From: Convolutriloba macropyga
Lineage: Eukaryota
Assembly (NCBI RefSeq): GCF_964194025.1
Contig: NC_134469.1
Location: 52,886,001-52,950,000, forward strand
DNA length: 64,000 nt
Direction of reading: 5' to 3'
The notes below the pieces were generated by a model, which was not told the DNA's origin, did no database searches, and was given only the letters and a program-made list of their open reading frames with translations. Shown here in pieces: positions 16,256-57,673 of this stretch (positions are counted from its first letter, which is position 1; the number at the start of each line of letters is the position of its first letter). Made by a program: the position numbers and the translations under genes.

Positions 16256-17818
16256 TTATTGATATGCACTCTGGGAATAGAGTTTGAGAACTCGGGTCGT
16301 CTCGTTCAATTCAGGGAGCCCCAATTTCTCTAAAACATCTAAGACCTTGTAGAGAAACGCAAAAGCTTCAAAAGTTTCTTTCAAACCGCCAACCCTCCGG
16401 GTGTTTGATTCTGAATTGCTTTCTATCAACTCCTCAAGGCGTCTCAGTTGCATCTCATGTTGCTGCTCAAAATTCAAATCGCTGTCGCTTCTAACCACAT
16501 CCACGGCGCTTGAACAAAGAATGCGCACTAAGTGAGTGCACATATCCTGAAACTGAGTTTTCACTGATTGATTATTCGAGATAAATTTCAAATTGATTCC
16601 CGGTATTTGCGCAATGAACGACACAACAGCCTCAGAAGATATCTCAAGAGTTTCCCGCGGACTTGATTCGGGATCCCTGATAATGTCAAGGACGGATCTT
16701 AGAGCAGTCTTGTAAAGGTTACTAATATACAGCTTGAACACGTCTAAAATTGCCCTATCTTTAGTGTCGATTTGTGAAGATGCTTCCTCATGTTTCGGTA
16801 ACTGTGGAGTTGGGCTTCTTGATCGGTCCGCGTGGTAGTGAGCAGAGGGAGAGTTATATCTTGGGTTTGAGAAGCCATCTAGGGATGGTGATGTTGATTT
16901 GGAAGAATGGAAAGAAACGTCAAGACTATTTGAGGGTGAGCAATGTCCCGAAAAATCACAACCAGAGTCGTCACTAGAGTTAATAGTTGAGCCTGAATCC
17001 TTGGACTGAGGTTCTGAAGCTGGCGTCTCATTCAAGGTAGGGTTGTTCCAGCTTAACTTTGTGACCAATGATGCCAGGTTCTCGTCTGGATTGGGTTGGG
17101 GGTGTGCCCTGGCTTGCTTCCTCGCATCTCGTCCAAGCTTAATCATACTAGAAGACATGCCCATTTGTACGCATCGATTGAAGCGACAGAACTTACATTT
17201 AGTTCTGTTGGCACCTGACACGTCACAATTGTTGCCTCCAGTTTTACAGAAGAGCTTTTTGATACCACCAACAATGGCCCTTTGAAAAAAGCGCTTGCAT
17301 CCTTCGCAGCAAAAAATTCCGAAATGGACCCCCGATGCAACGTCTTCACAAATTCGGCAAAACTCTCCGGGAAGAGTCTTGGAATACTTTTTCTTCAAAG
17401 GCATCGTCCCCTCTTCGTCACAATTATCGTTCCCAATTGGTTTCCTCTTCTTCTCACATTCAACTACATCTACATAATCGACTGATCTGCTTGAGTCCAA
17501 CTCTCCGTTCACTGATTCCCCACTAATAGGTAGCAAATGATCCGATAATTCACTCGATACCGAAGACTCGCCCATTGACGAGAAATTGCTCTGCGAATGC
17601 CGTCCGCTGAGGTCTTCGCGATAGTTTGGAAGACTGGAAATAGAGTTGGCATAGTCCAAAATGCTATCAGTAACTGTTCCAGGCTCGGTTTCAATACCCT
17701 CATAATCCGCAGGTTTATAAAGCGAGGGTAACTGGGGATAACTGAGGGGAGGGATGGCAGGGTTTTGAGGTGAAGAAAGCATGGCGAGGTAAAAATTATA
17801 CAAATCAAACGACGACAT
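16256..17818 (-). CDS. Nuclear hormone receptor (C4 zinc-finger DBD, divergent LBD), NR1-like, single coding exon, ~520 aa
   Basis: Uninterrupted ORF with first ATG at 17818. DBD CRICEDVASGVHFGIFCCEGCKRFFQR...CKTGGNNC...RTKCKFCRFNRCVQMGM, then a GRIP-box-like KLGR. LBD H3-H4-like VSFIAQIPG...NQ. Confidence 0.92.
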   Translation of the reverse strand: MSSFDLYNFYLAMLSSPQNPAIPPLSYPQLPSLYKPADYEGIETEPGTVTDSILDYANSISSLPNYREDLSGRHSQSNFSSMGESSVSSELSDHLLPISGESVNGELDSSRSVDYVDVVECEKKRKPIGNDNCDEEGTMPLKKKYSKTLPGEFCRICEDVASGVHFGIFCCEGCKRFFQRAIVGGIKKLFCKTGGNNCDVSGANRTKCKFCRFNRCVQMGMSSSMIKLGRDARKQARAHPQPNPDENLASLVTKLSWNNPTLNETPASEPQSKDSGSTINSSDDSGCDFSGHCSPSNSLDVSFHSSKSTSPSLDGFSNPRYNSPSAHYHADRSRSPTPQLPKHEEASSQIDTKDRAILDVFKLYISNLYKTALRSVLDIIRDPESSPRETLEISSEAVVSFIAQIPGINLKFISNNQSVKTQFQDMCTHLVRILCSSAVDVVRSDSDLNFEQQHEMQLRRLEELIESNSESNTRRVGGLKETFEAFAFLYKVLDVLEKLGLPELNETTRVLKLYSQSAYQ

Positions 17819-30800: not shown

Positions 30801-32977
30801 TTTGACTTTTTAAAAAATACTTAGTTTATTTCAGGTTGGAAAAAAGGAGCTGTTTAAATAATTGAAACAAAACCAGGAAAGGAAAAGTTTTGGAGGGTTG
30901 AGGAGCATTTTAAATCAATAAATTATATTCATATAACAGCTAGAAAATGGTCATGAAACCATATAATTATGCAATATATTTGATTATACAGAGTTGTTTG
31001 GAACAGAGAACATTTCAAAACAGAGAATATTAAAAGAAAAAATTGAACGAAGGTTAATTTTTCATTTCGCGATCTCCTCTTATTCTCGTGACCCATCTTA
31101 GGCATCAAATTTTTTATTTCAATAGATTTTGGATCAAAGCAAAAACGGGAACATTAATTGCACAGAAATCAAAATGTTCAACAGACGATTAACGATTAAA
31201 ATTTTATGAAGAAAAAGAAAAAACATTTTTTTCTTTGGAGCTATTAGAATTTGGAAATTTTATCATTTTTATGGCCGTACAAAAAAGTTATCGGATATCA
31301 TTTTCCAGAGGCCGTAACCAAAGGAACAATTGATATACTCTATAAAACAGAATATTACAGAAAACACCTAGAGAAAAGAAAACCCAAAAAAGTTTTAAAT
31401 TTCGTTCATCTCTTTGGTGGTTTCTCTGTTCTCTCAAACAAAAAATATTTTGCGTGAACATTAGAGCCTCCACCTCAGAGACTACTTGATTCACAGATAC
31501 GCAGAATTATGGGGTATTTCAGGCAACACAAAATAAGAAAAAAACAATCAGATCAGCGGTACACTTTCGCTTTAAATAAAGAAGACGGAATTCAAATGGA
31601 AAATTCGGAAAAGTAGGTCTTATTTTTCTTTTATTATTTTGCACAAATTAATGCTATGCATCGTAAACCATCCGTACTGTAACCCAATATCATGAGTCAA
31701 TATTACCTACTAACAACACGTTCATTAAGGGACATTCAAAAAGACAACAGCAAGAGCAACCACTTGTGGAGAGCAGATTTTTTTTCAACCTCCTTACTCA
31801 AGGCTGAAGTTGACCCTGATATTTGCGCTGCTCATCAAGTGGTTTTATTTCAATTACTGGTTTAATTTAACGGTATTCTTATATGCGGCCATCATAACTT
31901 TTCACTTCAATTAATAAAACCAGGTAAATTTTTCATTTATATAGAAAATGTTTTTTTTCTTCTAACTTGCTGAAATACACAGGCCAAATTTAACTCGAAC
32001 AGTTAATCAGGGGTTCTATAGGACTATATTGAGCCAAATGGATCACATTTGGGGAACTTGTAACAAGACGAATGAGAAAAATATAGTCATTTGGCAAAAA
32101 CAAAGCAAATTATATTTGCCGGCATTGCAACTGTCATCTCAACTTATGCTTGGTTGACTAAATGCACTTTCTCCAGTCGACTCAAAATTGAATAAATCGA
32201 CAAAATACTGAATCCACTTACTTGAAAAAGCATTAGTATTTCAGTACGATGATGTAGAAAACGTTTATTTCATACTCATAATTCGTTCATACTAATTGCC
32301 ACGTTAAATTTGAATAGAAACTTTTTCGTTGTCCAAAATTTATCCAAAATTATAAATTCTCCGATACAGGACAAATGAAATGAAAGCAGAGTTCTTACCA
32401 AAAAATTAAACTTCTCATAATCAACAACTATTTTTTCATGCTTGCTGGATATTCAGTGACGTTCTCAGAGCAAAATTTTCAACTTGATCTTGAGGCCAAC
32501 TATTTGGTAAATAATTAATCAAGGGGGCAGATTTTCATCGAGATAAAGATTATATGAGTAAACTATTACTAATTTATTTATTTGCTGCCTCCAAGGTTTA
32601 AACTGATCGCTTCACTTTTATTTTGCAAATGAGTGTCTGTGTTTCTTTAAGATGAATTTTATCTGCGACTAATTGCTCTCACTGAACTTTATGTTGCAAA
32701 AAAACCATATGCAACTATGCGTTTTTGTATCAAAGTTTTCGCTTCTCCAAAAAAACTGCTTAAATTTATGTTTTTAAAAAAGTGAAAAGAGCTTTTCCTT
32801 TCAGAGCAACAACAAAAATTTCACAAATTTGAGACGCATAATGCAACATTATGTGCTACGCACAGTCTCCTACAATAAGTGTGTTTAAAAAGAGTTTGGA
32901 GGTTATAAAACTGAATTTTTTGAAACTATTGAAGTAAAATCTTGCATTAGAATTTTTTTCAGTTGAATCAGGAAAAC

Positions 32978-33248
32978 TCAAGGAGCTATTCTGTAAATGA
33001 TCCATCCGTCAGAGCCTTTATGCATAACTTTTTCATCACAGTCCGCATGCTGAATTCTTCTGTCAAAAACGTATCTGTCGTGTAGCCTGTCTGTGTTGCC
33101 AGCCCAAAACTCAAAGTAGTCAGGCACTACTCGGAATCCACTCCAGTCATCAGGAAGAGGTAGTGAGTCTTTCTCAGAGTACTCTGACTCCAACTTTGCG
33201 TACGCATCTTCTAGAAATTTCCGATCGAGAATTGGGTCACTTTGAGGA
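32978..33248 (-). CDS. PNPO: Pyridoxamine/pyridoxine 5'-phosphate oxidase, exon 2
   Basis: Encodes (S)PQSDPILDRKFLEDAYAKLESEY...PDDWSGFRVVPDYFEFWAGNTDRLHDR...WIIYRIAP*, matching the PNPO motifs QS, EFWxGxxxRLHDR and RLAP. Confidence 0.93.
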
Positions 33249-33716
33249 CTGTTAGCAAAACGGTTTTCAGTTCTCCATGTAGATCCGAACCATAATTAAC
33301 CCTATATTTAGCACATTGAAATACTTCCTAGTTTTGAAGACCAATAATTCAATTGTTCCAACCCGCTAGGATCATTACGCTAGTTCGACCTTGTTCAACC
33401 AATTCTTTGTTAAGCCAATGTTGACCGACCAACAATTTTTGCGGAAAGATACAACAGTGGTATCATTAAAAAAATCTTGAAAAACAATCGACTTCGAAAA
33501 ATTTATTTTCGTTAAATAGTGCCGGTATTGCTTAAATGAGCATAGATATCAACAAACGTGAGGTGCAATAATCATATAGCGTTAAAATTAACCCCTGGAT
33601 ACTGATAATTACATTTTAAGATCTTATTAGGTTATACGGGCTTGCCGATGTAGTTTTCAATAGGCTATTTATACAATCCCATGAAAAACGTTCTACTTGG
33701 GGAAGAGAAAACATCC
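33249..33716 (-). other. PNPO intron, 468 nt, non-canonical GG-AG (equivalently AG-AC, 33251..33718)
   Basis: This junction (ATC AG|GGATGT...GCTAACAG|T CCT CAA AGT) gives SQISAAISPQS, colinear with conserved SQIGAxxSxQS. CAG is repeated at both ends, so the register is ambiguous. Confidence 0.75.
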
Positions 33717-34204
33717 CTGATTGCCGCACTGATCTGACTACCCTTTGGTCTGGAAACAAAATACGTGTTTGTCTGCTCGCGGGTTACTTCTACGGCTTTG
33801 CCTTCGATTCGAACTTGTCTATGAAAAAATTCCCAGTAAAAGTTGAGGGCTACAAATGGATTAGACTGTATTTCTTTGGATTTCTTGCTGTTTAGACAAG
33901 AGTAGAAAACGTATCCTTCTTGATCATACTCCTTAAGAAGTACATAACGGCTGGAGGGTCGGCCCAATGAACTGCACGTGGCAAGTACCATCTTGTTGGG
34001 CTGTTTAATCGACTTCTCAGCTACGGCCTCTTTCATCCATTGCTTGAAGAGACTGAAGGGATTGAGCGTCTTCACATTTTGATCATTCAGAGCTGCGTTG
34101 CCTTCGTAGTCGTAGGGGACTCGAATGTCTTTGAGAGAGCTCATGCTCCGTGTGAGGATATAACTTTTCGGCAGAGGAAATATTGACGCTCTTATAAAGA
34201 ACAT
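33717..34204 (-). CDS. PNPO: Pyridoxamine/pyridoxine 5'-phosphate oxidase, exon 1
   Basis: NPFSLFKQW, PNKMVLAT, GRPSSRYVLLK, NPFVALNFYW, RQVRIEG and YFVSRPKGSQI motifs. Spliced CDS is 759 nt (252 aa). A second in-frame ATG lies at 34144. Confidence 0.95.
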
Positions 34205-34377
34205 TCACATAAAACAATCTAAAATATCTAAAATAGAAAGAACTTGGTTAAGTATCAATGACTGTCCATTAGATCCTAGACTACAGTAACTGTTGAAATT
34301 TTACAACAATGAGCCGAACAGCACAAGTTAAGACAGATCTAAATGACTATTTTGCTTATCTTTAATAGCCGATCAAA

Positions 34378-37251
34378 AACACGGATGCTCGCTTATGTGC
34401 GATGGCAAATAATGTTCCGAACCCACTGATAAAAATATTTTCTCAATTGCCTAACAATTGTCAGCGATAGAATGATTTTAATGTGGTATTTAATGTTTTG
34501 TTCTTAAACTTTGATATATTCTTAAGAAAGGTCCGACGTCTATACAATAAAGATTTCATACCAGTGAGATCAAATATCTTTAATTCATTGAATGAGCACT
34601 CAAACAAACGAAACGAACGACATGAAATCGAATTTAATGCAATTGCTCAAGAAGAGAAAAAATAACTTCATCAAGTGAACACCTAATGTTATCCAAAAAG
34701 AAACGAAAATAGCGACCCAAAACTCAAGATCTAGGCCGTTTTGAATTTAAATCTAAAACTTTATTTGTTTTTATAAAAGTTACAGGTGGTCTCTATTTAT
34801 TTTCGAATATATAATATATTCTCAATTTAGACTTAAATGAGGGTTCACAAAAAATCTAAAGTGAAAACAAAAATATGTTCAAATGCAAATAGAGGTAACT
34901 CAAGCTAATCATGAGGTGAGTCACGATTCGAAATTGTCTATGAAAAAAAACCAGTGCAAATTGAGGGCTACAAATAGATTAGAAAAGTAGAGAAGCATAT
35001 CTGAAAACAAAATACAACCACGTATAACCCAAAATTTGAAACAACTAATCAAAAGCAGAGGCGTTTGAGTATGCAGTACTTTTGACAACTGGCTTCTGAG
35101 ATTTTACAAAACATTTTTGAACGGCATCATATCAAAATATGTTAACTTTGAAACAAAACTTTAAAACTAAACAATGTCAAAAGGACACATTCAGAAGTTT
35201 CAGTTCTGCCTCCTAAGAAAAACAACTGGACTTGTCAGCAATAAAAATAACTGATGAGTTCAAAACTAACCAAGAAACTAAATGAGTGAAAAATCAATAC
35301 AAAAGACCCAAAATATCTACAAATTTATAAGTAAATAAAGAGTCTCAAACATAAATCTATGACTAAATATCAAAATGTCGACTCAAACATGCCTCATTAT
35401 TGACTTGTAACTACATAATTGAAAGATTGAAGTGCAACAAAACAAGAAATTAACAAAAGCCGTTAGAACACAAATTTCAATTAAACTTTTTTGGAAACAT
35501 TTAGCGTCCAAACATAAATTTTTGCTGTAAACTGAAGCCATTCCTATATGTAATCTCGGCCACTGCCGTTAAGGAGGAGGTACTGACAGAATATACATTA
35601 CTCGGACTGTAACAAGTCAACAGAAAAAAAACCATCTAAAGTCAGAATTCAGAAATTAAAAAAAATTACCAGAACAAACTATTTCCAAGTGATCAATACC
35701 AAAGACTATATCAAAGAAACCTTATGAAGGTTAACTATACCTCACTGGAACTTCAACGAGAACTCAAAAGTATTGGGATTTATCAACATTACAATATCAG
35801 ATAAAAAAAGACAAAAAGACAAAACTAAGAAAATATTAAGTAAAACACGTAGTGTTAACGTGAAGAAAATAATCAATTATCAACAGACAAATTGAGACAA
35901 AAACAACTATACAAGAGTGAGACAAACATCGCACCTGCTAGATTCCCTAGTTCATATTTTCTAATACTTAACTTTGATAGACTCGTCAAGACGTGTTTAA
36001 AAGTGGTACTACTAGTGAAATCAATTTCCCTTATTTGACGCAAAAAAACAGACAGAAATGAGACGAGAGACATGAGATTTCAACCAATGCAGTTTTACAA
36101 TTTAAAAAAGAACAACTTTCTCGAACAACTGATTTTTATCAAACAACAAAAAATAAAATCCAGAAATCAATATCTATCCCTTTTCAAGACAAATTTCAAA
36201 CCGTAAATTCTCAAGTAATAGCAACCTTTTCAATGAGCTTGCTTCTAACCAGTTTTGATTAGAATCAAAAAGTTCAACTTAAATTTTTTAGTTAGTGCAG
36301 AAGTAAAAATGACCTGTGCATTCAACAATGCAAATTGAGAATGCAAATTCAAAGCTAGATAATCACAAGTTGTCATGAGTGAGGTATGTCAAGATTTAAA
36401 ATAAAACTAACCAAACGCTTGTTGCAACAAACTAGTTAACAAATCATGTAAACACGTAAATGAGAACAGCAGAAAAATCCTCAGCAAAGTTTGTTCAAAA
36501 CTTTCCTAAAAACAAGCACATAGTTTTGAGTATTAAGCAGCTAGAACCCCTTAATAAAAAAATTAATTTACAAGCCGAAAAACCAATATTGAGGGGCAAA
36601 TTTTTATCCTGTAGTCTTGTTATTTCAAAAACAAAGTTTAGAACAATTTATTAACACTGGACATAATCAGAAGCTTCAGTTATAATTCTTTATAACGCGA
36701 TTTGATCTTGAAAGCAGTCAGAATAAACAACAAGTCCTATTGTAAATAAGTAACTTTCACCAGAAAACCAAATGAGTTGAGAACCAAAAAGTCAAACTCA
36801 AAAATTCCGCCAATTTTTACGAAGTTGAATGGCGACAATTTAATATCTACGATAAGTTATCAATTAAGAAAAAAAAACTTAGATTTAAAAATGCCGCATC
36901 AATGACCTGTGGAGACTTTCATAAATAAGATTCAAGGGCAAAACAACACAAAATGCTCACAAGTTCAAATTCTTTGCATCTTTTAAAACCGTTTAGTGTC
37001 CAGTCATAAAACCCTTAGCTACAATATCATGCCATTAATGATCTTCGTTTACTGCTGAAATTGAAATATTCACACAAAAATTTAAGGATTCGAAAAAGAA
37101 ATTTTGGAAAAAAAACTTAATTTCACACTTCACTTGATCGGCTTTTTAGTGATACCACTCAAATCTCGACAATATATCGATCGGCCAAAATTGACTAAAC
37201 AAAAAAACAGTTGAGAATATAGTTCCTCCCCCACAACTGGGCTTGGAACAA
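34378..37251 (-). mobile_element. HINE/DINE-1-like element, copy B
   Basis: 3' end AACACGGATGCTC...ATGTGCGATGGCAAATAATGTTCCGAACCC at 34378-34425; 5' head GAGAATATAGTTCCTCCCCCAC...TTGGAACAA at 37213-37251. Confidence 0.65.
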
Positions 37252-37492
37252 TTATCGTCATGACAGTGAGGTATCATTCAAGTTGGATTTCGCACGTCGC
37301 GTCGTGTCATAATTGGAGAAAGGAATACCGAAAATTTTATTCTAGCTGCAGTCATCCCGGAAAAAACTTGAGACTAACAGAAAATTTATTAAACATAATA
37401 CGCACAACAAAGCACAGAGTTTAAATGAATTGGCGTAATTATTTGTCCTGCCATGAGTTGCCGCAATTAATTGTTATGCGATTCTTCATCAT

Positions 37493-38547: not shown

Positions 38548-41145
38548 AACAAGGAGGCTCATTAATTAGCGTTCGCATAATGTTCCGACCCCACTCATCT
38601 ACATTTTTCGCTTAATTGTCTACCACAGGACAATTAAATTTTTAAAATTAATATACCGTTAAACAAACCATTAAACGAATAAAACAATCTACTTTATAGG
38701 GCCAAGGAGACCTGTCATTGACTGCCGTTGCTAAAAAACGTTTAAAAAAGTTCATCAAAGAAACGTTGCTTTTTTGAAAAAAAAATCAGAAAAATTAAAC
38801 TCATTATGTGTCGACAGAAATCATTGAATAATTCATTTATACCTCGATAGAAAGTAATTGCGACCTCTCATTATCCAGTATATATCATACGACCACAAAA
38901 ACAACGACAAAAACAGGTGAAAAAAAACTAAAGTTTGCACGAAAACTATGACCCAGCCACTAACACTTTAAGCTGCTCACTAAGAACACTAATATTTTTT
39001 CTCAAATGGCAACGGGACTACAATTTATTGTGATACTGCAAAGAAAACAAAAACCTAAAAAATGGGCTAATGTCCAAAAATCACGAACATCTTATGAAAA
39101 CTCTAATTCCAAGAACAGAAACCTTCCTTGCAAAACAAAATCGTTAAAAAGGATAAGCTGTAGTTCACTAGATGAGGGAAGTGACTTGTTTATACAGATA
39201 CTAAGCCACAATTCAACAGGATAAGATTTATAAAATGGGCAAAGCTCAAACATCCATCAACTTTTTTGAAAACAATTACTTTCGAAAGTCATAAAAAAAT
39301 AAGCTTTCAACTAAAAGAACAGACAATTTATCTTGCAACTTCTCAGAAATTAAATTGCGCCTATTATTAATGAGCCTAAGGAATGAGACTACAAAAACAA
39401 ATACAAGCAGAACTTAAATATTTTACGAACCAACAGCGTTGAAGCCATTAAAACTATAAGACATAAGCCGCGACAAATTTATATCTTCACTTGTGTCTTT
39501 CTTGAACATCAAAAAGTCGTCATTGTAAATGGACTAGATCAAAAAGACAAAAAAACCCACAAATATTGAAAAAAATCTTAAACTCACATAAATTCGAATA
39601 CAAATTGTCGAAGCACTTAAGTCAAAACGTTTAACCATCAGAAAAAATGTTGTTTGATGCAACAGAAACTGAAAGCTGTCAAAAATTAGCCTAACTTATA
39701 AAAATGCGACGAAAACGATACCAAAAAAATTAAATAATTTAAAGTAATTTGAAAGTCAATAGAATCATTAGCTATCAACTTATGTCATTCATCAGGTTCA
39801 ATTATACATCTATAGTTGGCTATTGAGACAGTTGTTTACCGTATACATTGCTAAAGACAACAAAATTAACAAATACGGGCGAAAAAACTCTGAAAATCCG
39901 CAAGACAACGGTGTTGCAGCCCTTAAACCATAAATTATACACTAAAAATATGAAATGAGTTCAATTCTGTATTCATAAACCTGAATTCTTTTTGCTTTTA
40001 TTTGCTTAGTACTTTAAGAATTAAAAAAAGCAAAAATGGTCAGTTATAAACAAAAATCAAAATATTTTGTATGAAAACTCGTAGTACCAAAGCCATGAAG
40101 TCGTTATATAAAAAAGGCTGACCGGTTATTACCAAAATTAAGCTACAAGTTGACGGAAATAAGATAAATTAACAAAACAAAAAATCACTGTAATTTTCTT
40201 AAAACAAATATTGTATCGGTTTACTTACACCACGTAAGGAAACCAATTGGATTTTTGGTTAGTGAGACAGAGGAACCAGACTGCGAAAAGAATAAATGAA
40301 GGCAAAACCCAAGAATTCAGTTTAAGTTTACTAAAGCTCTTCGTCAGCGCCAGTAGCCTTTCTCTGGGATCAAACTATATTCAATCGGTCTCCTTTTTAC
40401 GTAAAAAGGAGCGGTCTTTAATTGGGTCGTTATTTGGAAAATTTCTCGGTAATCAACATTAAAAGAAGCAACAGCAAACTTTAAGTCAGCGAGCGCCCTA
40501 ATGAAATTTGAAATTCTTATTGCAAGAATTCATGATGCCATCAAACCTATCCCTGAGTTTGCCGCGCGTGTAGGAGACCACCTTATTGCTCCAAATGTCT
40601 GCGAATTAGATCAATAAATAGTAAAGTGAGTTAATTCAAGAACAAAAAAAGGTGCATTTTGTATATTTATCGAGACAAATTTGCAAAAAACCGGCAAAAT
40701 TTTAACCCAAGATGACTCTTATAGGAAGCCGACGTTCAAATAGCTCTCTTGTGGAATTGACGGAGCTGGTGTCAGAGGTTTTTGGATCTCAATTTCCACC
40801 AAATCTAATTAAATTGTACCAAAAAGCCTATTTTGTGCTATTTTTGATGAAAAAATTTAGACAAAGAAACGGATATCAAACAATTCAGCAACCCTCCCAT
40901 ATCCTTAACAGTTAAAATAACATATTTTTAAGTAAATTAGCAAAATTGACGAATATTCACAAAACTTCAAACCTCGATAACTCTGTAAAAACGAAATTAA
41001 AAAAACTTTTTAATTCCATATTCTACAATGTACGGGCTGTCTAATGATACGACTCACAACTCTCTGCGATGAATATATTGACTGAACGAAAAACTCATTT
41101 GAGTATATAGTTCCTCCCTGCCCACTAAACAGGCGGTCGGAACAA
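38548..41145 (-). mobile_element. HINE/DINE-1-like element, copy C (in calcineurin B intron 3)
   Basis: Perfect asymmetric subTIR TGTTCCGACC (38581-38590) / GGTCGGAACA (41135-41144); AACAAGGAGGCTC terminus; head shared with copies A, B and D. Confidence 0.75.
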
Positions 41146-41344
41146 TAAGTGTCCAAAACCGTAGATAATAACAAATCTCAGGTAGTAGTGATAATATCCC
41201 CTCATTGGTTTTCACGTTGCTGCGAAATTGTCTTGCGCGGATACTTGTGACGGATTAATCCAATTTCCAGGCAGCTATAACAAACGAAAATATTTACTCC
41301 TACAAGCCTATTTTAAAAATGAGGACAAAAATCTGTTTCAAGTG

Positions 41345-42624: not shown

Positions 42625-43169
42625 GTACAACCACACATTTTATCAACACTAAATATACTTCGCGAAAAAAAACTCAAACGTGTCAAATGGAATTCAATGT
42701 GATGTTGCCATTTTGTAAACTTTTAAAACACTGTTAAATTTTTTCTGGGCTGAGTTTTATCTTTGCAAGTATATTCAGCCATACGGCTATAATATTAAAT
42801 TACTTGTTTCAAAAGAAATCCGAAATTTTTGCTCTCAACAGATGCAATTGTAGATGCTCGTGGGTTGCGAGAGAACAACCTAATGTAAATTGTGCATAAG
42901 ATAAGCTTGACAAGAAGCTCTACTTGTTCAATGTATACTTCGCTAGAGAAAAGAAGCTTTGAGGAGCAAGAAAGAACATGAGAACGGGTTATAAGAGATG
43001 ACCCAAATCCAGAGCTTAAGACCAGATGGTTAGCACACTATGCTTGCAAGTAGATGCTAGTTCACATCCAGTAATGGTCCATTTTCACAGTAGTTGCACC
43101 TGCTTAGACGCCTAACAGTAGACAAAAGCGAACACACTGCTTCCAGTGAAACAAAAATTTTCATTGGGT

Positions 43170-46100
43170 GTAGTAGTAGTAGTAGTAGTAGTAGTAGTTC
43201 AGGCTTAAGGGTCTTCCCAGGGGTGCTCCAAGGCACCCTTGTTTTCGTGTCCTATTTCTAATCGATTTTCGATCGTGGGTTGCACTTCCCACATTTACAT
43301 AAGATTCTCCACGTACATTTGTTGTTAAAGTCGTAATTTGTTTTAAAGAAATTCCAGTAGATGTCACTCAGTTTTTTGCTCGATAGTTGCGTTGAATCAG
43401 AAAGAACTTTGGAAAAGATGTTGTAAAGTAGTTTGGCTTTTTGAAGGAAGTTTTCATCAGTCTTCCTTAGACAATTTTTTGCCATTTTTAATTCCCCTCT
43501 TGCGCTTTGTTTAGGGGAATTAAAGTCTTCATATTCGAAGTTTACTTTGATGTCGAATTTATTGTCAAGTAACGATAGTAAAAGTAGTAAATCGTGCAAT
43601 TCGACATACATGCTTAGGGGCAACAGTTTAAGCGCTATTAGCGTTTCTTTGTAGGTGCAGTTCCTTCTACTTAGTATCCATGAAGTGGCTCTTTTTTGTA
43701 GCTTTTCAATTTTCTTCATCTGCTGTCTGTTTGGGAGCCAAGCTTGAGAACAGTATGATAGTATTGGCACGACATAGCCAGTGTAGGCATTCAATTTATT
43801 TTTTAATGAGGCGATGTCGGTCATGTTTTATTTGGTAGAATGCTTTTGTTGCTTTCGAAAGCCAGTGATTACAGTTGCTATTCCAATTAAGATTTTTAGA
43901 GACAATAAAGCAAAGGTCCCGTTGACTATCAACCTCTCCTAGCGCCTGTTTTTTAGTGACGCTGTTGGTCGCTTTTAAGAGAGAGAAGTTTACATTTTGA
44001 TGCAATTAAGTCATGTGATTTCGATCGCACCAGTTTTCGATTCCTTCCACGCTCTTTTTTTAATTATTCCTGATTTACGCTAATCAGTTTGAAGTCTGCG
44101 AAACCGAAATTTTCAGTGAGAGGAGTTTCTGATGGAAGGTCATTTATGAAGATGAGGAAGAGCAGAGGACCTAAGATTGACCCTTGTGGAACACCGCTAG
44201 TGATTTCTAATTTTTCGGAAAAAGAATTATTAATCTTTACGTATTGTTACCTTCTATTAAGGTAGCTTTCCATCAGCTTTAAAAGATTTCCTCCAATTTC
44301 GAATAAAAGCAGTTTTTCAATTAGCTTGTTGTGGGAGACTTTGTCGAAGGCATTTGCAAAGTCTAAGTAGAGGACTGACAACTCTTTCGTTTTCACATCG
44401 TTAAATTTGGCGTACAAAGAGTTTAGAAAAAGTAGTAGTTGAGTTGTAGCAGACCTCCTCTGTCTAAATCCAAATTGGTTTTCAAAGAGATTGTCTTTGC
44501 AATGTGAGTATATTCGGTTGCAAATTATTCTGTCCAACAGCTTTGAGACGCAGCATAAAAGACTTATGGGCCTATAGCAGTTGACATTGGCTTCACTTCC
44601 CTCTTTATATACTGGCGTGATTTGACTTAGTTTCCAGAGTTCCGGGAAAATTCCTTTATTCAGGATTGTTTGGAGCAGTAATAGGAGAGATTTACTCAGA
44701 GTCTTAGCGCAATTTCTGAGGATAATATTTCCTAGGTTATCGGGGCCTGCTGATTTGTTCAGATCTAAATTTTGTGAGAGCTCTTCAATTTCCAGGCGCA
44801 AAATTTTTATAAAGAAAAGTTTGCTTTTTGTGTAACTCAGTAGACGAGGTTCTTTACTTTTATATACATTTTTGAACAAATTGAAAAGGGTGGCTTTTTC
44901 GCTGTCGCTACTGGCTTTTTCATTACCGAATTTGATTGTTGCTGGCAAAACTGAGGGATTTCGGATACATTTCAGGTAATTTTGTATACTGCTAAAACGC
45001 CTGCTTGTGAAAATTTTGTCTTCGAATATGTTTATATCGATGTCCAGTTGTTTCAAAATCTGCTTCTCCAGCTTCTTTAGTTTGAGGAGTCTACTGAGAT
45101 TCAAATTCAAAGATTTTTTTGGTGTTCAACTGCTTCATCATGTGAGAAGTTTCTTTACTGGCCCAAGGAGGCAATGCTGCTCGATATTTCGTTACTTTAG
45201 GAATGTGATTGTTGATATGGTGTCTAATTCATGTGTACCATTGGTTTAATAATGAGTCAACATTACTAAAACAGAAGAGTTTGAAGGCGTTTTCCTCAAT
45301 GGCTTGATTCAGTTTTTCCAGTCTGCTTTTTTGAAAGCAAATTTACGGCACGTGTTTGGAGTTTTTGACAACTGTGCCGAGAAACACAAAAGTCAGAATT
45401 GGTAGGTGATCTGAACACTGCTTCTTGTTCACCTCCTGTGAGGGTTTTGGTGTTGATAGCATTCTATCACTGGATGTGGATTATTTGTGAGGACACCATC
45501 TAGCGTTTGATTTGATATGTTCGAGAAGTTTGATTCTATCAGTTTATCCAGGACCTCTGATTCATAGTTATCATTAGAGTCCATTGCTTCCCAATTTTTC
45601 CCTGAGAGGTTTATTTCGCCTACAATCAGAGTGCATTGAATCATTTCCTGACTTGTTAAGTTGCATAATTCAGTCAGTAGCTTTAAAGTTTTCAGTAGTC
45701 CATTGATAGCGACTTCCGTGCGGGGGATCATACATGCAGGCCAATAGAATTGAGGTTTCGCTGATTGTTATTTTTAGTGCTAAAGTCATGAGTTAGTTTT
45801 AGGTTAACTGTTTCAAACGGAATGCCTTTTTGAGAGCTACTAAAACACTGCCATGGTTTGATTTGCGTTCAGTTGACTCTCTGTCCTTTCTGTTGATTAC
45901 ATAGTTCGGTATAAAAGCGCACTATTTGAAGTTTCAGCCGCCAGCCAGGTTTCCGTGAGACAGATGATATCAAAGTCAAAAGTTGTCAGGCAGTTCGTTA
46001 ATTTCATTCGACGCTCGGGTTTCAGAATACTACGGACGTTTTAAGATAAGATTGTTATTTTTCGTAGTCAGCTTTCGTCGGCTGACGATGCGCCAGCAAA

Positions 46101-47244
46101 ATCGTTTTCAATCAGATTGTCTTTATATTCTACCCATCTGTCACCTGGTTTGGTCTCAACGATCAAGTTTCGGACTGTAGCATCTGTGTTTGAGAACATG
46201 TGGTTGGCAATATACAGTAGTCTTTTTCTCAGACACTCATTTTCAATTTTTAATTGCTCTGGGGTAAGCTCAGGGCTTATGAAGACTCGCCGACTGAAGT
46301 TTTTAAGCCTGAAGGCTGATTTCAGCACTAGCTCTTTGCTAATAGGGCTTTCTAGATTTATGAGGATGGTTCTCGGACCATTTTCTGGGTTATATTTTCC
46401 TATACGCGTGACCTTACAGAGTCGCTTGTCTTCTACTTTCTTTAGGTAACACAAGATCTCTTCAATAGCATTCATATATTCATATCGGCATGAAGTCTTT
46501 CGTCTAGTGACTTTGATTCATTTTCTGGGATTCCTCTTACTCGAATACCCATTCCATTGTCGTTTGCGCTTGGGAGCAGAAGCGCTCGTTCGCGCGTAGA
46601 ACACTTTTCCCTTCGCAATTGTCCCCAAAGAAGCGGCATAAGATTGCGGCCTTATTTTTAACTGTGATAGTTCTGCTTTGATTGAGTTAATGAATTCGTT
46701 TGATTTTTCGATTTGCTTATTCAGTGATTCCACTTTCAAATTGAGATCATCTAGTTTTCCATCCATTTTTGTTGAGAGAGCCTGACTTTGGTCTCCTGAC
46801 CCCTTTTTTCTGTACAACTGTTGCAGACGTGAAGTATATTTGCATTAAATTTGATCAAGACTTTAATTTCTTCTACTGTAAAGCCTGTTTGAGTAATTCT
46901 CAAAAGATGCGCTTCCATGTAAAAAGGAATCCATAAACAGAGGCTGAACAAACAGGGCAACGCAAAAACTCGCATGATTCCGTGCGTGCAACAGATTGTT
47001 ACCACATTTAAAAAGAAACAAAAACAAAATAGGGGGTGCTAGTTGTTCAACCTGCCCTGCATACAGTGCAGCACCGTTGCTATAGCCACAATTCTTTTTT
47101 GCGGAGACAGTTATACTGCACGTTGAAAATGCAGCTTAGACCACCTCACTCCACTCCACACATCGCACACACTCCGTGCACCCCAAGCCCCACACGCTTG
47201 ACACTCACCCCGCTGCAAACCCAACCTCTAAACCACCCCTGAAC
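43170..47244 (-). mobile_element. Near full-length, frameshifted CR1/L2-clade LINE (ORF1 + EN/RT ORF2), within calcineurin B intron 1
   Basis: 3' (TAC)n tail at 43170-43198 preceded by the hairpin GGGTGC-CTTGGA-GCACCC. RT motifs YRPISLL, QFGFRQRRS, LYLDFANAFDKVSH and [22 protein letters not shown]; endonuclease DIICLTETWL (~45945-45975). ORF1 has PHD-like and coiled-coil parts and RIGK...GPR...FISPELT. Several frameshifts. Confidence 0.93.
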
Positions 47245-47423
47245 TTTACCTTTTAAGGTAGTCTCTAAGCCCCAGCATGATATTGACTTAAACCAACTGC
47301 TCACCAGTCGCTTCTAACATTTCTGGAAACTATTGGCATAACAACAGTTATCACAAATACGTACTGAAAGGGTTCAACAGACCACGGGGAAATCATAAGA
47401 AATCATTCATGGTGTTAAAATTG

Positions 47424-50000
47424 GACAAGAGGCGCGGTATAAGGTTCCGATCGCACATAATGTTCCGATCCCGCTCATCTAAATTTTTGTTCATTGTCCA
47501 ACAAATGAAGAGATTAGAGATATAAATAGATGTTAGTGTAAAAAAATTACAACCCAAACTACTAAATGAATTATGAATTATATAATGTCATACTGCATTC
47601 GAGAACTCATGCGAAAATAAAAATGCAAGAACTCAAACATTATAAACTCTAACTACTAAATGATTTATATAATGCCATACAACACATTGAGCTCTCATGA
47701 TACCTGTCATTATTAAAACTATGAGACAATGCAAACACAAAACAAACAAAAACCAACAAATACGGCAAAAACACAAAATCTATTTTTAAAAGCACTAACA
47801 AGACTCCTGTTCATAAAGGTACTAGATAGCCAGTCGACAAAAAGAAAAAAATAGGCAAAGTTCAAAGTACATCGAAATTTTTTAACCCAAATAATTTCAG
47901 AAGTCATAAAAACCGTTAGCTTTTAACTTAAATTTTCCATATCGACTTACTTATAGAACCTCGAGGGATCTGTCTTGGGTGAGACTAAGGCCGAGGACAG
48001 GAATACATAATAGCTGCAGATTCCGAATACCACAAAATTTACAAACAATTTACAAAAATACAATTGAAGCCATTAACGTCATATATCTTAAAAGTATATA
48101 ATATTCTTCAATTTCTACTATTTCAGTTAATATATAAACAGAAAATTGTATATGTTCACTCGAATCTCATTTGAAAATCAATGGGACTTGTTAACACGAA
48201 CATTTTAAAGGAAAACTAAAAACCTTACCAATCACAAAAATTTTAAGACAAAGCATAGTGTCCAAGATGAAACTAAAGGTTTAAGTTTAAATCACAAGAC
48301 AATGTACGGGACCTCTCATTGATAAGAATACGTTTCAATAGACAAAAAGAGGAACAAATCAGGAAATAAGGAAAAAATTCTGAAAACTTTAGAAACAAAC
48401 ACGATCAAAATCATCAAAACCATTAGCTGTCGACTGACCGATAGATTAGGTTCCTAATCCCCTTCCACTAAAAGGTAGCTATTGAGAACTGTAAAAAATA
48501 AGAAAAACCCTGCGACAAAACAAAAAAGCTTAAGACTACGAAAACAACAATTACAAACCTTAAGACTACAAAAACAACAATTACAGGCAAAAAACCAGAT
48601 ATCAAAAATGCGAGAAGTGTCGGAAGCAAAAAATAAAGGATTCCGTAAAAAAAAATTCATTTTCCTATCAACACCAATGGGATCTCTCGGCATTCTGAAA
48701 AGATGACTTCAAAAACAACGGCAATTATGACATGATATCAAAAAATCTCTTAAATTTTGGATATAGGTCGTAGTATCAGAGCCATTAAAAATAAGTATGA
48801 ACGCAAAACATCTAACAAGTTAATTCACACCTAAATTGGGACCCAGTGAGACCCTTTATTCATAACAACAAGTCTTCTGATTACAAAATACAACAAATAC
48901 AGGCAAAAACCAAAAATGCAATAGAAAAAAAAGCCAGAAAAAGTTGAAGCCATTAAAACATGAGTCGTTTGCTGCTAACTTTCTATGTGTTCATTAAAGA
49001 CTATGCTGAACGCCAATGGGAATGTTCAATATTGTTGTGATAAGACTTCTAATTAAAAACACAATTATACACAGAAATCCAAAAATCTTTATAAAAACAT
49101 AGCATCAAAGTCATAAAACAAAAATTTAAAAGACAAAACAACTAACCAAATAAATTTTTATTCAATATTAAACCTAGTGGACCTATAAATTTTGGGAAAG
49201 ACCTACAGGTTCACAGAAATGTCTTTAAGAACATTACGTGTTCAATTTTTGCTTCAAAAAATTATTTCAAAGTCTCAACAACCATTAGGTATACATGGAA
49301 AGCATTAGGTAGGTTAACTTGACCTTAGTTAGGAATCCAATTGCGATTTATGTTTATTGAATTTTTCCTGTAGACATTTAACAAGAAAAATGCAACAAAC
49401 GGTGGGAAAACACAAAAATTCACTAAAAATTACGAAAAAATTGTCGAAGCCATAAAAACCCATTAGCGATGGTTCCATGAAAAGAAAATAAATGTTCTTT
49501 AGGGACCAGTTGCTCGTAAATGAGATTTTTCATCACTGAAACTTCAATTTGAAAACGTACTTGCCTATAATGACATCAGAAAAATAAAAACTCGAAAGAA
49601 ATTCAAAAAAGGCACTCTCCGATATGAAATTAACAAAAAGTTTGTAAACTTCCCGGTGAGACCAAAACTAGTCTTTTTATTACTGCTCGTCTTCTGGAAC
49701 ACAAAATTGTTTCTTATTTTACTGTAAAAAACAATTTTTTACTAAAATTTTGATACAAAAAACTTAGATTTATCAAAAATGAGGTTACATGTGAACAGAA
49801 TCACACCCAAACATCAAATGTTCACAATTTTAAACCTCGATAACACCTCGAAAAAAAAATTCAAAACTTTTTAATTCAAACCGACGTTGGAGGAGCTTTC
49901 TAACGATACCACTCATGATTAATTACGATGAATATATCGATCGCCCAAAATTGGCTGAACAAAAAAAAACCTAACCTGTTAGAGAATATAGTTCCTCCCA
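47424..50000 (-). mobile_element. HINE/DINE-1-like element, copy D
   Basis: ACAAGAGGCGCG...GCACATAATGTTCCGATCCCGC end at 47425-47474; shared head GATACCACTCA...GAGAATATAGTTCCTCCC at 49905-49999, with the extreme 5' end lost. Confidence 0.65.
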
Positions 50001-51719
50001 ATAGTACATAGTGACTAATAGTACAAGAATTGAGAGCAAAACAGAACAAATCCTTAAAACCTTCAGATTATTAGTTACATATAAAAACACTCAATATGAA
50101 ATTACTCTTTGAGTATTTAAATAAGATATATCAAAAACAAAGAAAAATCTTCCATGGTGTTTTTTAAAATTTTCTTTTTAAAATTTTCATTAAAAACATT
50201 GGTGTCAAAATGACCAAATATCCTAGACTGATGCTCAGCAAAATTAAAGACTTTTCAACATTGTTGTTAGGATTCCTTTTTATTTTAAATATCAATGTTA
50301 CGAAGTAAAATTAAGGACATCAGGTCAGGCAACATAGAAAAATTTTTAAACACCGTGAAGAAAAAAAAATTGCATCGAAGTAATTAATTGCATTCACTAT
50401 AGAAATGAAAGATTAAATTGTTTAAATTGAGACTGATTGCAAAACACATAAGCCCTCTTTCTGATCTCAGTCAGTCAGTGTACTTGAAAGAACTCTAAAT
50501 ATAATAACAAAATATAGGGCAAAAAATATATAGGCAAAAGTAACAAATTCAAATTTTTCCGAATCATGCGCCCCCAAAATCGTTTAACAAATTAGCTACC
50601 CCTTGAATCATTCACAAGATTACGATAAAGCATCCTTAGAAACCTTGCAATCCTTTTTGTAGAATTCGTCAGAAAATCAGATAGCAAAAAGAGAAAATTG
50701 TGAACAAATGTGACAATAAGCGCGTGAACAAAAAAAAAGAATCAGTTGCTGTCACTCAGATGAAAAATAGTTTGAGAGAATTTTAAGCAGCTCCTTTTTG
50801 TCAAGACTATCGTTTTCCGTTCACTTTTCTGCTTCAAGGAAAATAAAATCGCCCAAAATTTGCGGCCAAATTAAAGAAAAATTCTCTTTGGAAAAATTTA
50901 ATCAATTTAATCTGAACTTCTTTTAGACGGTCAAAAGGAGCACAGGAAGAACCATCTCAACAGACGAAACGGCTATTAACGACGACTAATGCTGATAGTA
51001 TTTCAAAATATAACAGTAACTTAATGATTGAAAAATTTACACAAATCAAAAACTTGATTATTTTTAATCCAAAATTTGCAAATTTTTATTCCCCAACGAA
51101 AAATCATAGAAGACAATCGCAAGGCAAAAATTGATGTTTCGACATATTCAAATTGTTATATTTAATTTTCTTATCCACTTCAAGTTCGATAATTAACCAC
51201 AAAAACCTACGACAGCGGTACGCAGGAAACCAATTACCATAAAATTGCTCCAAGATACGACCAAAAATGTAAAAATGATTCAAATTTAGCTGCCAAAGTT
51301 AAAGTGAATTCTGACACCCTTTTTGTTATTTTCATGACTGCTGCATTTTGTCTGTTTCCTCATTGATAGTGCTCTTTAAGGTGTCTGCTAGTTAGCAGGT
51401 TTGTCATTTTGGCTAGTAATTACATTTCAAGTGTTTATACATTTCAACAATATAGATATATTTGCAATTTCTAACCTTCAGATAATTTTGTTAAGCTTTA
51501 TCTTGTCCAATTTGTCTGTTTGGCTCTAGGAATTTAGATACGGTTTCTGCTATTCCATCTGCTTTACCGTACAGGAACTTCTGCTTTATATATTTTTGAT
51601 GTAATAGATGTTGGGAACCATGTTTCTTTAAGTTACATTCCTCCTGTTATCTTGTAGTAGCTTCCAAGTTTGTCCACATTTGACAAAACTTTGAAAACTT
51701 ACTAAGATTTATTGAATTT

Positions 51720-54700
51720 CTGTTTTTTCGAGGAGTTATCGAGGATTGATGTTTTGTGTGAACACGCGATATTTAGCATGATTTTGTTCACTTTTAATGT
51801 AATTTTTCTTCAAATTAAGATATTTTTTATTAAATTATTAATTCGAAATTACGTTTCACGCCATAAAATGAAACTATTTTGAGTTCCTAATACACGAAAG
51901 GCGAAAAAAAGCTAGTTCTGGTCTCATAGGGAAGTTTACTATAAAAAAAATTCGAATTCTTTTTGCGAGCTTTTTCAAAAAAAAAGTTTTCATATTTTTC
52001 TTGGGTCAACTAGAGACTAGTCTTTTTTTCATATCTGGGTTCCATTAAAAAAAACCTGATTTACAGTCAAATAAAGCCCAATGAACAAAACAAATCATTT
52101 TCAAGGAATCGCTCGTGTTTTTTGGCTTCGACTCGTAATTTTAAATGTAATTTTAATTTTATTAATGAAGTTTTACTTTTTGGAGTCCTATGACATGGTC
52201 TTGTTGACTAACAGTGCAATAGGTTTCGTAATACCCATTAAGTGATCCTATCTAGAGCGTTCAGTGGACAGCTAATGGCTATTAAAACTTTCAAAAAGAT
52301 TTTTCGAGAACTTTCGAGATCATTAACCGATAATAAACCTATTTTCGTAAATTCTAAATTGGTTTCATTAATGATAGAACCCCTATCCTACTGCAATCAA
52401 AATAATTCTGGTTAGCGCTTTCATCTTCCAAATATTTGATATATGACTTCGATGCCACACATTTTCAAAAAAAAATTGAAAATTTTTTTTGGATATATTC
52501 CTATTGGTGGTTCCTCATGAAATCTTATCACTTTATCCTGATATTGACATCTCCCATTGGCTTGGAGAAGATTTTCAGAGGATCATGGATAAGGTTTTCA
52601 AGGACATGGTTTAAACTTATGGTTTAAATGGCTTCGACACTTTCCTCTCTCACATTTACTGATTTTTGGTTTTCGCCTGTATTTGTTGTTTTTTCTATAG
52701 TCAAAAGACTTATTGTGATGTCTTATTTATAACCTATAAATGTCAAATATCCTTGTCCTATAATTGAGGCATACTCTCCAATTGAAAGTATTCAATGACA
52801 TCCGTTGAAAGCTATTGAAATTAATGGCTGTTAAGACTTAAAAAACAATTTTTTGATTTTTTTTTAAATTAATCAATCTTAAACTTATTTTTGTGACCTG
52901 TTAGTCAGTCTCAGTATTGATCGGACCCCCTTCTTTTCTATTTCAACCAAATTAATTTGGTTAGCGGTTTTATCTGCTAAATATTGGTGTTATAACTTCG
53001 ATGAACGAGTTTTCATAATTTTTTTTAATTTGTGGATATCGTTTTCGTAATTTTTTTGGTTCCTTTTGGATTTTTAACACATTATTCTTTCATTGGTAGT
53101 CGCATTGGCTTGAGTTGACGTACAATAGATCACACATAAGTTTTCAAAAAAACTTATGGTTTAAATGGCTTCGACACTTTCTCGCACTTTTCTACTTAAT
53201 TTTTGGATTTTGCCTGTATTTATTGTTATTTTCATGGTCAAGGACCTTTTTTCATGGTCAAGGACCTTCGACACTTTCTCGCACTTTTCTACTTAATTTT
53301 TGGATTTTGCCTGTATTTATTGTTATTTTCATGGTCAAGGACCTATTGTAATGTCCTATTGATGACTTATGAATGAAAAACATCCTTGTTGTCTCATCGA
53401 GGCGTGATTTTGCTTATTCATTAGCTTCCGTTGAAAGCTATTGAACTAAAAGGCGTTGATGCTACGTGTTTTCTCAAAAATTTCGTGGTTTTAATGTATT
53501 TGTTCATGTTTGTGGATTATTGGAGTCAAATTGTTATAAAGAAAAATCTCATTTCTGTTAAAAAATTAATTGGAATTAGAAAAGCCGCAAAAGGTAGCCG
53601 TAAAATGTTGACCGGCCCACAAGCCTGTAATTGAGGATTGAATGAATGATGTAATCCGAAGCAGTCAGTTTATTGCGAATAGTCAAAGTTTACGGTATTA
53701 TACATGTACACTTTTAAAGATTTTTCAATTTTTTCAAATTTTGTTGCCCTTTTTGTCAATTTGTAACTTATTCTTATCATTGAGAGATCCCATTCAATTC
53801 CATGTATTTTAAAAATTAACATGCTTAATAATATTATGACGTAACTGATGTTTTGTTTGTCCGACAAAATGCATTTTTATAAAAAGTTAAGTGCATTTTT
53901 ATAAAAAGTTAAGTGATTGGTATATTTTTGTTTCTTTTTGTCTTCCTTTAGCACAATCTCGTAGTAAGAGATCCCAATGATTATCAAATGTTGCAATGTT
54001 GCTCAATTGAACTTATTTTTTAATTCAAGATAACTTTAACTGAAGTAGTATAAATAGAAGTTGAAATAAAAACAAAGCATTCAGATAATAGCTAATAGAT
54101 AATAATTTTAATGGCTTCACTAATTTGTGTTATCGCAATGTTTGTAATTTGTTGTTCGTATTTTTTGAGTTTTTTGCATCTTTAGTCCGTTCCTGTGGCT
54201 TAGTATAACCAGAGACAGTTCTTATTGGTTTCATGACTTTTTAGTAAACTTATCAAGAGTTATTTCGTTAGAAGCCAAGACTTTTGAAATTATGGTTTGA
54301 AAATGATGAGTGATTTTTGAATTTCGCTGATTATTTCTCTTTTTTGTCAACTTTTTACCTCGCCTCATTAAAGAAAAATCCCATCTGATGTGTAGTTAGA
54401 AAAAAGTAAATAAGTGTTGTTAGGGTTTTGTCTGATTGTAATTTGACGTTGTTACTAGGTGCTTTTAAATTAAGCTATTGAGTTTGACGTACCAAGAAAT
54501 TTTGTTTTTGCATTTTTGGTTTTGTTTTTTTCTCGTAATCTGTTCAATGGCAGATCCCGTTACAATGAGGCATGGCTTTATTTAGTTCAGTTATTATTTG
54601 GTTATGTAACGAGTTTTTTAACCTCAAACATCTATTCTTTGCAAAAATGTAAGTCAAAAGACAGATAAGTCAAAAATGTAGATGAAGGCGGGTCGGAACA

Positions 54701-54735
54701 TCATGTGCAAACGCACATTAACGAGTCTCCTTGTT
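51720..54735 (+). mobile_element. HINE/DINE-1-like element, copy E (5'-truncated, inverted relative to D)
   Basis: 3' GGGTCGGAACATCATGTGCAAACGCACATTAACGAGTCTCCTTGTT. 51722-51940 is reverse-similar to 49640-49860. Internal ~97-bp tandem duplication at 53169-53345. Confidence 0.65.
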
Positions 54736-55214
54736 GAAACTATTCTTTTACTACATTTTATCAGTGGATGAAAAAATCATAAAACCTGGTACTGGATAAA
54801 GTTTAAGTGCTATAAGGGACTTAATTCGATAGCAAACCCTCCTCGTCTGTATATGTCTGTCTCACTGCAGGGAAATCGGATGGTGATATGAGTCGATGAG
54901 GTCAGATGACGTACTTGATAAAGAGACGAGATAGTTGCAAGTCGGAAGGTCAAGTTCATCTATAGAACTCAGTTACCACTAGACCTTGTTAACATTTATG
55001 ATTTTAGATAGTTAGATTATAAGGGATTAGAAGACCGGATATCATAAGTTCACTCGGAGCAAAATCTGCCACTATGTATTTCAACTATATTTTCATCTGC
55101 ATACCGCATACACTCGTTATAAGGCATTTTTCGATGCAAAAATTTACCTTTATATAACTTTTTCCTTCAATAAACAGTTATTTTATAGATAATTTAATAA
55201 AAAGTACAACTTAT

Positions 55215-56482: not shown

Positions 56483-56792
56483 ATGCAAACAGTGTTGAGA
56501 AACTCTTCGTCAGCATGGTGCATTCTTTTGATACCACTCTTCAAGTTATTGGTGAGAGTTTCAGCTACTAACGACCCGTCAGGTCTTCAATTTACTTATT
56601 TAGTGCCAGAAAACACCTCCAGACCCTCTGCCATTAAGGAAGATGAAACAGTGCAATTTAGTGTTAGCCGGTCTCCCGGTGGATTATCAAGCGAAGTAAG
56701 ATGCTCCCAACAGAATGGCAAGGTGGTGAGGATGGAGAAGCTTTCACAGTCGAGAGAGGGCGCTCGTTTTCAAGTGACAGGGCGAAAACTAG
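56483..56792 (+). CDS. SLC10 (sodium/bile-acid symporter family, P3-like) exon 1: signal peptide and extracellular domain
   Basis: Hydrophobic N-terminus; ends FQVTGRKL-G with phase-1 donor CTAG|GTATGA, which matches the phase of the next exon. Confidence 0.75.
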
Positions 56793-57540: not shown

Positions 57541-57673
57541 TCCCTAGTGATCGAAGAATTCAAAATCTTGCTAGAATCTTGCAAGCAATCTTGGAAGGGA
57601 ATGCATACTACTTGCAAGCTTCTTGCAAGTTTTGAATCATCTTGCAAGATTGGAATCCGCTCATCACTAGGGA
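57541..57673. mobile_element. MITE (133 bp) with TA TSD
   Basis: Perfect TIR TCCCTAGTGAT/ATCACTAGGGA flanked by TA; internal CTTGCAAG palindromic repeats. Confidence 0.85.

Follow-up and report, generated by a model that had tools for sequence, protein, structure and literature searches.

How is the full-length product of a conserved enzyme gene made when the single intron of its coding sequence begins with GG and has no GT donor? This question is raised by a PNPO gene on the minus strand of a 64,000-nt stretch of DNA (the window) from the acoel Convolutriloba macropyga. The protein encoded by its first exon falls in the same 90% cluster as RefSeq XP_075239909.1, a PNPO-like protein of C. macropyga. 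Letter-for-letter agreement with RefSeq proteins of this species extends to two more genes of the window, calcineurin B over the full protein and an SLC10-like transporter over its first two exons.

The PNPO gene and its GG dinucleotide in genomic DNA

On the minus strand, PNPO exon 1 ends with ATCAG at 33717 and is followed by an insertion that begins with GGATGT at 33716 and closes with GCTAACAG at 33249, after which the frame picks up again at 33248 (Table 1). Removing 33716-33249 gives a spliced frame identical, letter for letter, to XP_075239909.1. As the original prediction had proposed, this join restores the conserved protein including its QS motif: three acoel orthologues read SAAISPQS across the junction, and the spliced protein aligns without gaps to human PNPO over the same stretch. 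Read-through does meet the stop expected at 33665 (codon 33667-33665). A second ATG in exon 1, at 34144, corresponds to the conserved start region of the orthologues. The same RefSeq annotation contains alternative isoforms of a neighbouring gene, which suggests that it drew on transcripts, but the PNPO junction itself could have been derived from protein homology. A literature search for the splice positions of human PNPO gave no match.

Table 1. Positions of the PNPO gene features, intron repeats and calcineurin B intron 1 within the window
Feature	Position	Strand	Remarks
PNPO coding exon 1	33717..34204	-	RefSeq start ATG 34204
PNPO intron	33249..33716	-	468 nt, GG-AG register, sole intron of coding sequence; splicing deduced from RefSeq model and orthologues
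PNPO coding exon 2	32978..33248	-	Intact; 72-81% identity to acoel orthologues
Stop codon met on intron retention	33665..33667	-	Product of 159 or 179 aa without QS and C-terminal domain
Donor CAG/GGATGT	33711..33719	-	Non-canonical; 7/9 to U1-type, 8/9 to GTATGT-type consensus
Acceptor region GTTTTGCTAACAG	33249..33261	-	Like canonical acceptors of the window
Left arm of subterminal inverted repeat	33692..33712	-	Intron +5 to +25; 17/21 complementary to right arm
Right arm of inverted repeat	33263..33283	-	Intron -35 to -15
Inner inverted segment	33655..33673	-	19 nt, 79%; pairs with 33303-33321, nearly in register with the arms
Decayed interspersed-repeat copy	33403..33472	-	Weak match, ~69% over 70 nt; alignment to ~33355
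Calcineurin B intron 1	42625..55214	-	12,590 nt, AT-AC, major-type donor GAG/ATAAGT; RefSeq protein match

The PNPO gene looks alive and single-copy, because exon 2 is conserved like exon 1 (72-81% and 75-88% identity to acoel orthologues) and both exons have single-contig depth in four DNA runs. Among 18 protein matches at E<=1e-50, C. macropyga is represented by one cluster. Alleles in other runs differ at 33228 and 34033, changing residues L170P and K58E; the acoel orthologues carry P at residue 170 in two cases and E at residue 58 in all three. At 34924-34983, ~0.7 kb before the start codon, lies a 60-nt copy of part of exon 1 (33805-33865) in the same orientation, 87% identical and with a frameshift inside. 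A PNPO search of JGI metagenome contigs returned 8 loci at 36-45% identity and no DNA of C. macropyga, and was uninformative on the intron.

The GG at intron positions +1 and +2 is present in genomic DNA. The contig of run X2 covers 31231-37200 with no other letters and no gaps over the PNPO gene; the comparison draws on the contigs of four DNA runs from at most two samples of one study, and the closest run's contig may be the window's own source. No difference at 33715 or 33716 appears among those listed for the four runs, whose tables run to 74 further rows, and the contigs of X1, X3 and X4 have 1, 3 and 1 unplaced differences, respectively. Residue 58 distinguishes two splice-unaware gene calls as separate alleles, and each of them translates the donor region as I-R-D-V-F; with a GT there, the reading would be I-R-Y-V-F. 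A minus-strand T at genomic position 33715, named in the original prediction as the letter that would undo it, is found neither in the X2 contig nor in the gene calls of the two alleles, and its central claim of a PNPO intron without a GT donor stands. None of the 15 joints listed (145 more exist) comes from an intron-less allele, which is weak evidence.

Splice signals and alternative junctions

The repeated CAG allows exactly four registers, those originally predicted: with first bases at 33719 to 33716 and a length of 468 nt each, enumeration gave CA-AA, AG-AC, GG-CA and GG-AG, all reading ...SAAISPQS.... Since all four yield an identical mRNA, AG-AC is not separable from GG-AG by cDNA. GG-AG is the best supported register, as had been proposed, because it alone resembles a donor, with 8/9 letters of the GTATGT-type consensus against 1-2/9 in the other three (1/9 for AG-AC). 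Within the window, CAG is followed by the G-N-A-W-G-T pattern at 4 of 1487 sites, and the donor combines an exon-end AG with an A at +3, as do copepod GA/GG donors (PMC5714493). The prediction had described a match to U1 and U6 at every position except +2; the +2 mismatch is there, and the U1-type consensus is also missed at +4 (7/9 letters). Calculated U1 duplex energy is -5.0 kcal/mol for the GG donor; four canonical donors lie between -5.6 and -8.2, and GTs in the vicinity at +1.1, +0.8 and -0.5. The value for the AG register, -5.1, uses the letters of the GG site and does not discriminate between registers.

We searched for canonical exits by pairing each GT or GC donor in 33800-33601 with each AG in 33400-33181. 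In-frame pairs either lose conserved residues or, from the donors at 33689 and 33674, keep QS and gain 9 or 14 residues. Nearby GT donors had been said to cause a stop or to delete QS; this was incomplete, as 33689 and 33674 stay in frame and retain the motif, and it is conservation, not stops, that excludes them. The distance from R152 to S166 is exactly 15 residues in all 119 other homologues listed, which are mostly bacterial, and Q165 and S166 are kept in 119 and 117 of 120 aligned rows (the matches listed, minus the read-through product and plus the RefSeq model). GT donors near the junction have 3-5/9 consensus letters and scarcely any pairing with U1. The two in-frame donors were rejected on these grounds: joined to the same AG, they would insert 9 or 14 residues where 0/119 homologues have an indel, and they fit both the consensus and U1 poorly.

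At the other end, the acceptor is of the ordinary YAG type, ending in CAG and resembling three canonical acceptors in the window, and we take it to be ordinary for C. macropyga on sequence grounds. The canonical calcineurin B intron 3 ends with GTTTTGCTCCCACAG and the SLC10-like intron with TTAACAG. The 3' region of the PNPO intron is T/G-rich, and branch-like motifs occur as CTAAC at -4 and TTAAT at -48. The CTAAC noted earlier as abutting the final AG is indeed present, but it is not peculiar, given the ending of the SLC10-like GT-AG intron. A branch A four bases from the intron end is too close. CTAAC is thus probably not the branch point, which probably lies upstream, for example in TTAAT. 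Minor introns are marked by an RTATCCTT donor and a CCTTAAC-type branch site; both the PNPO intron and calcineurin B intron 1 lack these motifs.

That calcineurin B intron is also non-canonical. The RefSeq protein requires it to be cut as AT-AC or, one base on, as TA-CA, and the AC end is followed by exon AG. Read in this way, it falls into the known class of major-type AT-AC introns (PMC6280755). The AT-AC assignment is taken from the assembled sequence and could be imitated if the assembly had slipped by two bases at the donor; the read-through frame of exon 1 is absent from the protein collection, so that no second-allele match was obtained. A GA-AG reading of the same intron was rejected, as it would delete an arginine kept in 100/100 motif-matching homologues (of 154 proteins examined, 30 long ones were dropped, and 24 of the 124 short ones had no motif match). 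Introns 2 and 3 (42536-42378 and 42291-37667, minus strand) are GT-AG.

The five complete introns in the window thus comprise one GG-AG, one AT-AC and three GT-AG, 2/5 not being GT-AG, and the six readable donors are 1 GG, 1 AT and 4 GT; the PNPO intron was chosen for its oddness, so the unselected tally is the AT-AC intron only, 1/4. The SLC10-like (bile acid cotransporter-like) gene, with its first two exons at 56483-60368 on the plus strand and a GT-AG intron 1 (56793-60129), lies head to head with calcineurin B, with ~1.1 kb between them. Within calcineurin B intron 1, a broken LINE-like retrotransposon (43258-46844, minus strand) has a reverse transcriptase match and a weak endonuclease match. 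Elsewhere in the window, 16259-17818 (minus strand) encodes in a single frame a protein of 520 aa that is identical to an NCBI entry; it carries a C4 zinc finger of the nuclear-receptor type and matched no Pfam ligand-binding domain. A ~1.8 kb tandem duplication of 97% identity, with a shorter repeat of 270-290 nt at its start, occupies 1193-5066.

Age and origin of the PNPO intron

Three ENA gene calls, on contigs of 110-290 kb and belonging to a Symsagittifera roscoffensis cluster, contain the whole PNPO protein in one unbroken frame, whereas the same kind of gene call on C. macropyga contigs stops within the intron. To judge from these proteins, the Symsagittifera coding sequence appears to be without the intron. 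Because Symsagittifera encodes PNPO as one unbroken frame, the intron was probably gained recently in the Convolutriloba line. This is the most economical interpretation, with loss of the intron in Symsagittifera as a possible alternative.

The intron carries inverted repeats near its ends (Table 1). The arms are not terminal, lying 4 nt and 14 nt in, and a faint inverted match extends over ~100 nt (55/94 columns), a value reached by 61 of 5748 comparison windows. With 40-nt ends, the end-pairing score is reached by 8 of 9053 such windows and 2 of 5000 shuffles; the rank varies with the chosen end length, the windows reaching it numbering 154, 8, 54 and 145 of 9053 for 30, 40, 60 and 80 nt (0.1-1.7%). 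The score is 26 for the PNPO intron, compared with 16-19 for the three calcineurin B introns (40-80-nt ends). The pairing probability of the predicted stem falls from ~0.95 for the bare intron to ~0.4-0.67 when whole exons are attached, flanks of 100 nt giving 0.84-0.95, and the intron as a whole does not fold better than its shuffles (z -1.17; 12/100). A competing inverted match (33682-33697 with 33254-33269, 13/16) would pair the acceptor region with intron +20 to +35.

We found no further copies of the intron ends within the window, and both end bins have single-contig depth in 4/4 runs at 85% likeness, a level at which very short or older copies would escape. Because its ends look single-copy, the intron is not a member of a young introner family. 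Its interior holds one decayed copy of an interspersed repeat with other copies near 8600, 37140, 41000 and 49890, and the bin 33327-33583 has extra depth. These copies, at 37140-37280, 8600-8740, 40990-41150 and 49890-50000, belong to a very abundant short repeat; at 37197 the summed contig depth is ~25,000 times single-copy, and the 37140 copy has, by eye, short inverted ends. Rfam gave no matches in the window, and the repeat pattern had none in JGI metagenome contigs. CAG stands at both ends of the PNPO intron, and likewise in the canonical calcineurin B intron 3. Taken as a whole, these features leave a transposon origin of the intron evenly balanced.

Competing explanations and what the intron means

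We consider it quite probable that the PNPO coding sequence, otherwise intron-free, has newly gained in the Convolutriloba line a single, constitutive and obligatory GG-AG intron that would be removed by the major (U2-type) spliceosome. Direct support comes from the GG in the DNA, the need to remove 468 nt for the conserved protein and the unbroken Symsagittifera frame. In human cells, just one non-canonical donor ranks below GG (PMC6280755), and constitutive use of so weak a donor in a housekeeping gene therefore needs explaining. In the proposed mechanism, U1 would be held mainly by the exon-side CAG together with +1, +3, +5 and +6, and U6 would read +4 to +6, contacts that would offset the G at +2. 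A normal first G and a normal last AG would let both chemical steps proceed, with the branch point upstream, for example in TTAAT at -48. The predicted stem between +5 to +25 and -35 to -15 would bring the intron ends together and may help, but it also covers +5 and +6, which U1 and U6 need. As for the source of the intron, there is perhaps an even chance that an old fold-back DNA element inserted at a CAG and duplicated it, one CAG then closing the exon and the other serving as acceptor; its arms would then have decayed since insertion.

Alternative ways of removing the same segment have to be set against GG-AG splicing by the major spliceosome. Cutting two bases upstream at both ends, as in Fritillaria, would leave an A-C terminal pair and the identical mRNA. 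AG-AC is the commonest class in F. borealis, at 18% of introns as reported in 10.1101/2025.08.15.670264, and an AC acceptor seems usable in C. macropyga, where the calcineurin B AT-AC intron also ends in AC before an exon AG. We nevertheless regard AG-AC as very unlikely: its donor matches 1/9, a near-perfect consensus two bases on would be a ~0.3% coincidence, and the PNPO 3' region is T/G-rich where AC introns of F. borealis are described as C-rich (same source). Structure-guided removal, by SOS or hybrid SOS-spliceosome splicing set off by pairing of the inverted repeats, ranks about as low. The intron ends are predicted to pair, and SOS is described in PMC12779559 as acting without the spliceosome and cutting DNA transposons out of animal mRNA, at sites that are not GT-AG and lie close to paired inverted repeats, hybrids taking a canonical 3' site; the same source describes it as imprecise and leaving indels, of which the PNPO site tolerates none. 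Moreover, the PNPO stem is short and interrupted (17/21), and donor and acceptor look spliceosomal.

A conventional GT-AG intron starting at 33689 or 33674 would have the merit of canonical, in-frame donors that keep QS. Against it stand the 9- or 14-residue insertion in PNPO, without parallel among the 119 homologues, 3-5/9 consensus letters, near-absent U1 pairing and a RefSeq model that uses neither donor, and we give it even less credence. Least credible of all is that no splicing occurs, PNPO being dead or truncated or the GG an assembly error for GT. The closest DNA run may be the window's source, which leaves some room for error, but GG stands in the identical contig and in two alleles; a dead gene is hard to reconcile with an intact, conserved exon 2 beside decayed inserted arms, with the lack of a second copy by depth or with a single C. 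macropyga cluster. A further scenario shares the splicing of our preferred explanation and differs in origin alone: a GT-AG intron was gained first and +2 later mutated to GG, the inverted repeats being incidental or a later insertion. We hold this order of events to be possible but doubtful. A single substitution would turn the site into a perfect GTATGT donor, and the arms are neither terminal nor multi-copy; however, GG is found in both sampled alleles, and the left arm begins within the donor (+5), tying donor and repeat together.

A GG-AG intron is not without precedent. Such introns are already known and very rare in humans (PMC5714493, and as reported in PMC4176328 and PMC7072748), with 32 GG donors among 222,263 introns in the count cited in PMC5714493 and a testis-specific CPSF3 site as an example (PMC4176328). 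The PNPO intron shares with these a major-type consensus around GG, but human sites are mostly minor alternatives and production of the full enzyme depends entirely on the PNPO GG. The closest parallel in detail is the copepod Eurytemora affinis, in which RNA-seq-backed GA/GG introns make up 10-12% of those sampled, with an obligate exon AG, A at +3 nearly always and lineage-specific positions (PMC5714493). The PNPO intron resembles them in its GG donor, exon-end AG, +3 A, ordinary acceptor, constitutive use, lineage-specific position and being missed by gene callers; unlike that class, it is one GG intron known from DNA and protein models, and the window's other odd intron is AT-AC, not GA-AG.

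Larvaceans offer a second comparison. About 12% of Oikopleura introns are GA/AG, enriched among new introns (reported in PMC4122922), and GX/AG introns are common among larvaceans, Fritillariidae included (10.1101/2025.08.15.670264); U2AF duplication, with divergent subunits in the Fritillaria AG/AC type, and loss of the minor spliceosome go with this larvacean kind. The PNPO intron is likewise new, with a non-GT donor, a normal AG and major-spliceosome features, but C. macropyga belongs to another phylum and is known here from one window's introns. The C-rich tract described as preceding AC in Fritillaria is absent from the T/G-rich 3' end of the PNPO intron. In introners and MITE-derived introns (Micromonas IE, F. 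borealis), the duplicated target supplies a splice site, as reported in PMC11282704; the PNPO intron is similar in its new position, its 3-nt direct repeat able to supply the acceptor AG and its inverted repeats near the ends, but its arms are decayed and subterminal and no copy family was found. Like the SOS substrates of PMC12779559, it is an insert with paired inverted repeats in coding sequence and lacks GT; unlike them, as far as that account goes, it has a splice consensus and needs an exact cut. None of the papers that we found deals with non-canonical acoel splice sites, though supplementary species tables of introner or splice-site surveys may include acoels; the available parts of PMC9911081, PMC12130899, 10.1101/2024.12.01.626237 and 10.64898/2026.04.26.720859 hold nothing on the subject.

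Even taken singly, the PNPO intron offers a clear case of a GG donor on which a conserved enzyme depends, and it probably represents a gain that has kept traces of where it came from. Because GG donors are weak in human cells, the PNPO site is a natural test of tolerance for G at +2. Its occurrence near an AT-AC intron hints at loose splice-site rules in C. macropyga. It is conceivable, if on present evidence unlikely, that Convolutriloba, perhaps with its acoel family, is a further animal lineage, next to the copepod Eurytemora and the larvacean tunicates, whose major spliceosome routinely accepts non-GT donors, so that old fold-back transposon insertions in essential genes could become fixed as introns spliced exactly and constitutively; the PNPO and calcineurin B introns would then sample a genome-wide class. 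If the 2/5 share seen here held genome-wide, splice-unaware or GT-only gene calling would truncate many acoel genes, and acoels, as early-branching bilaterians, would be an independent case of spliceosome relaxation.
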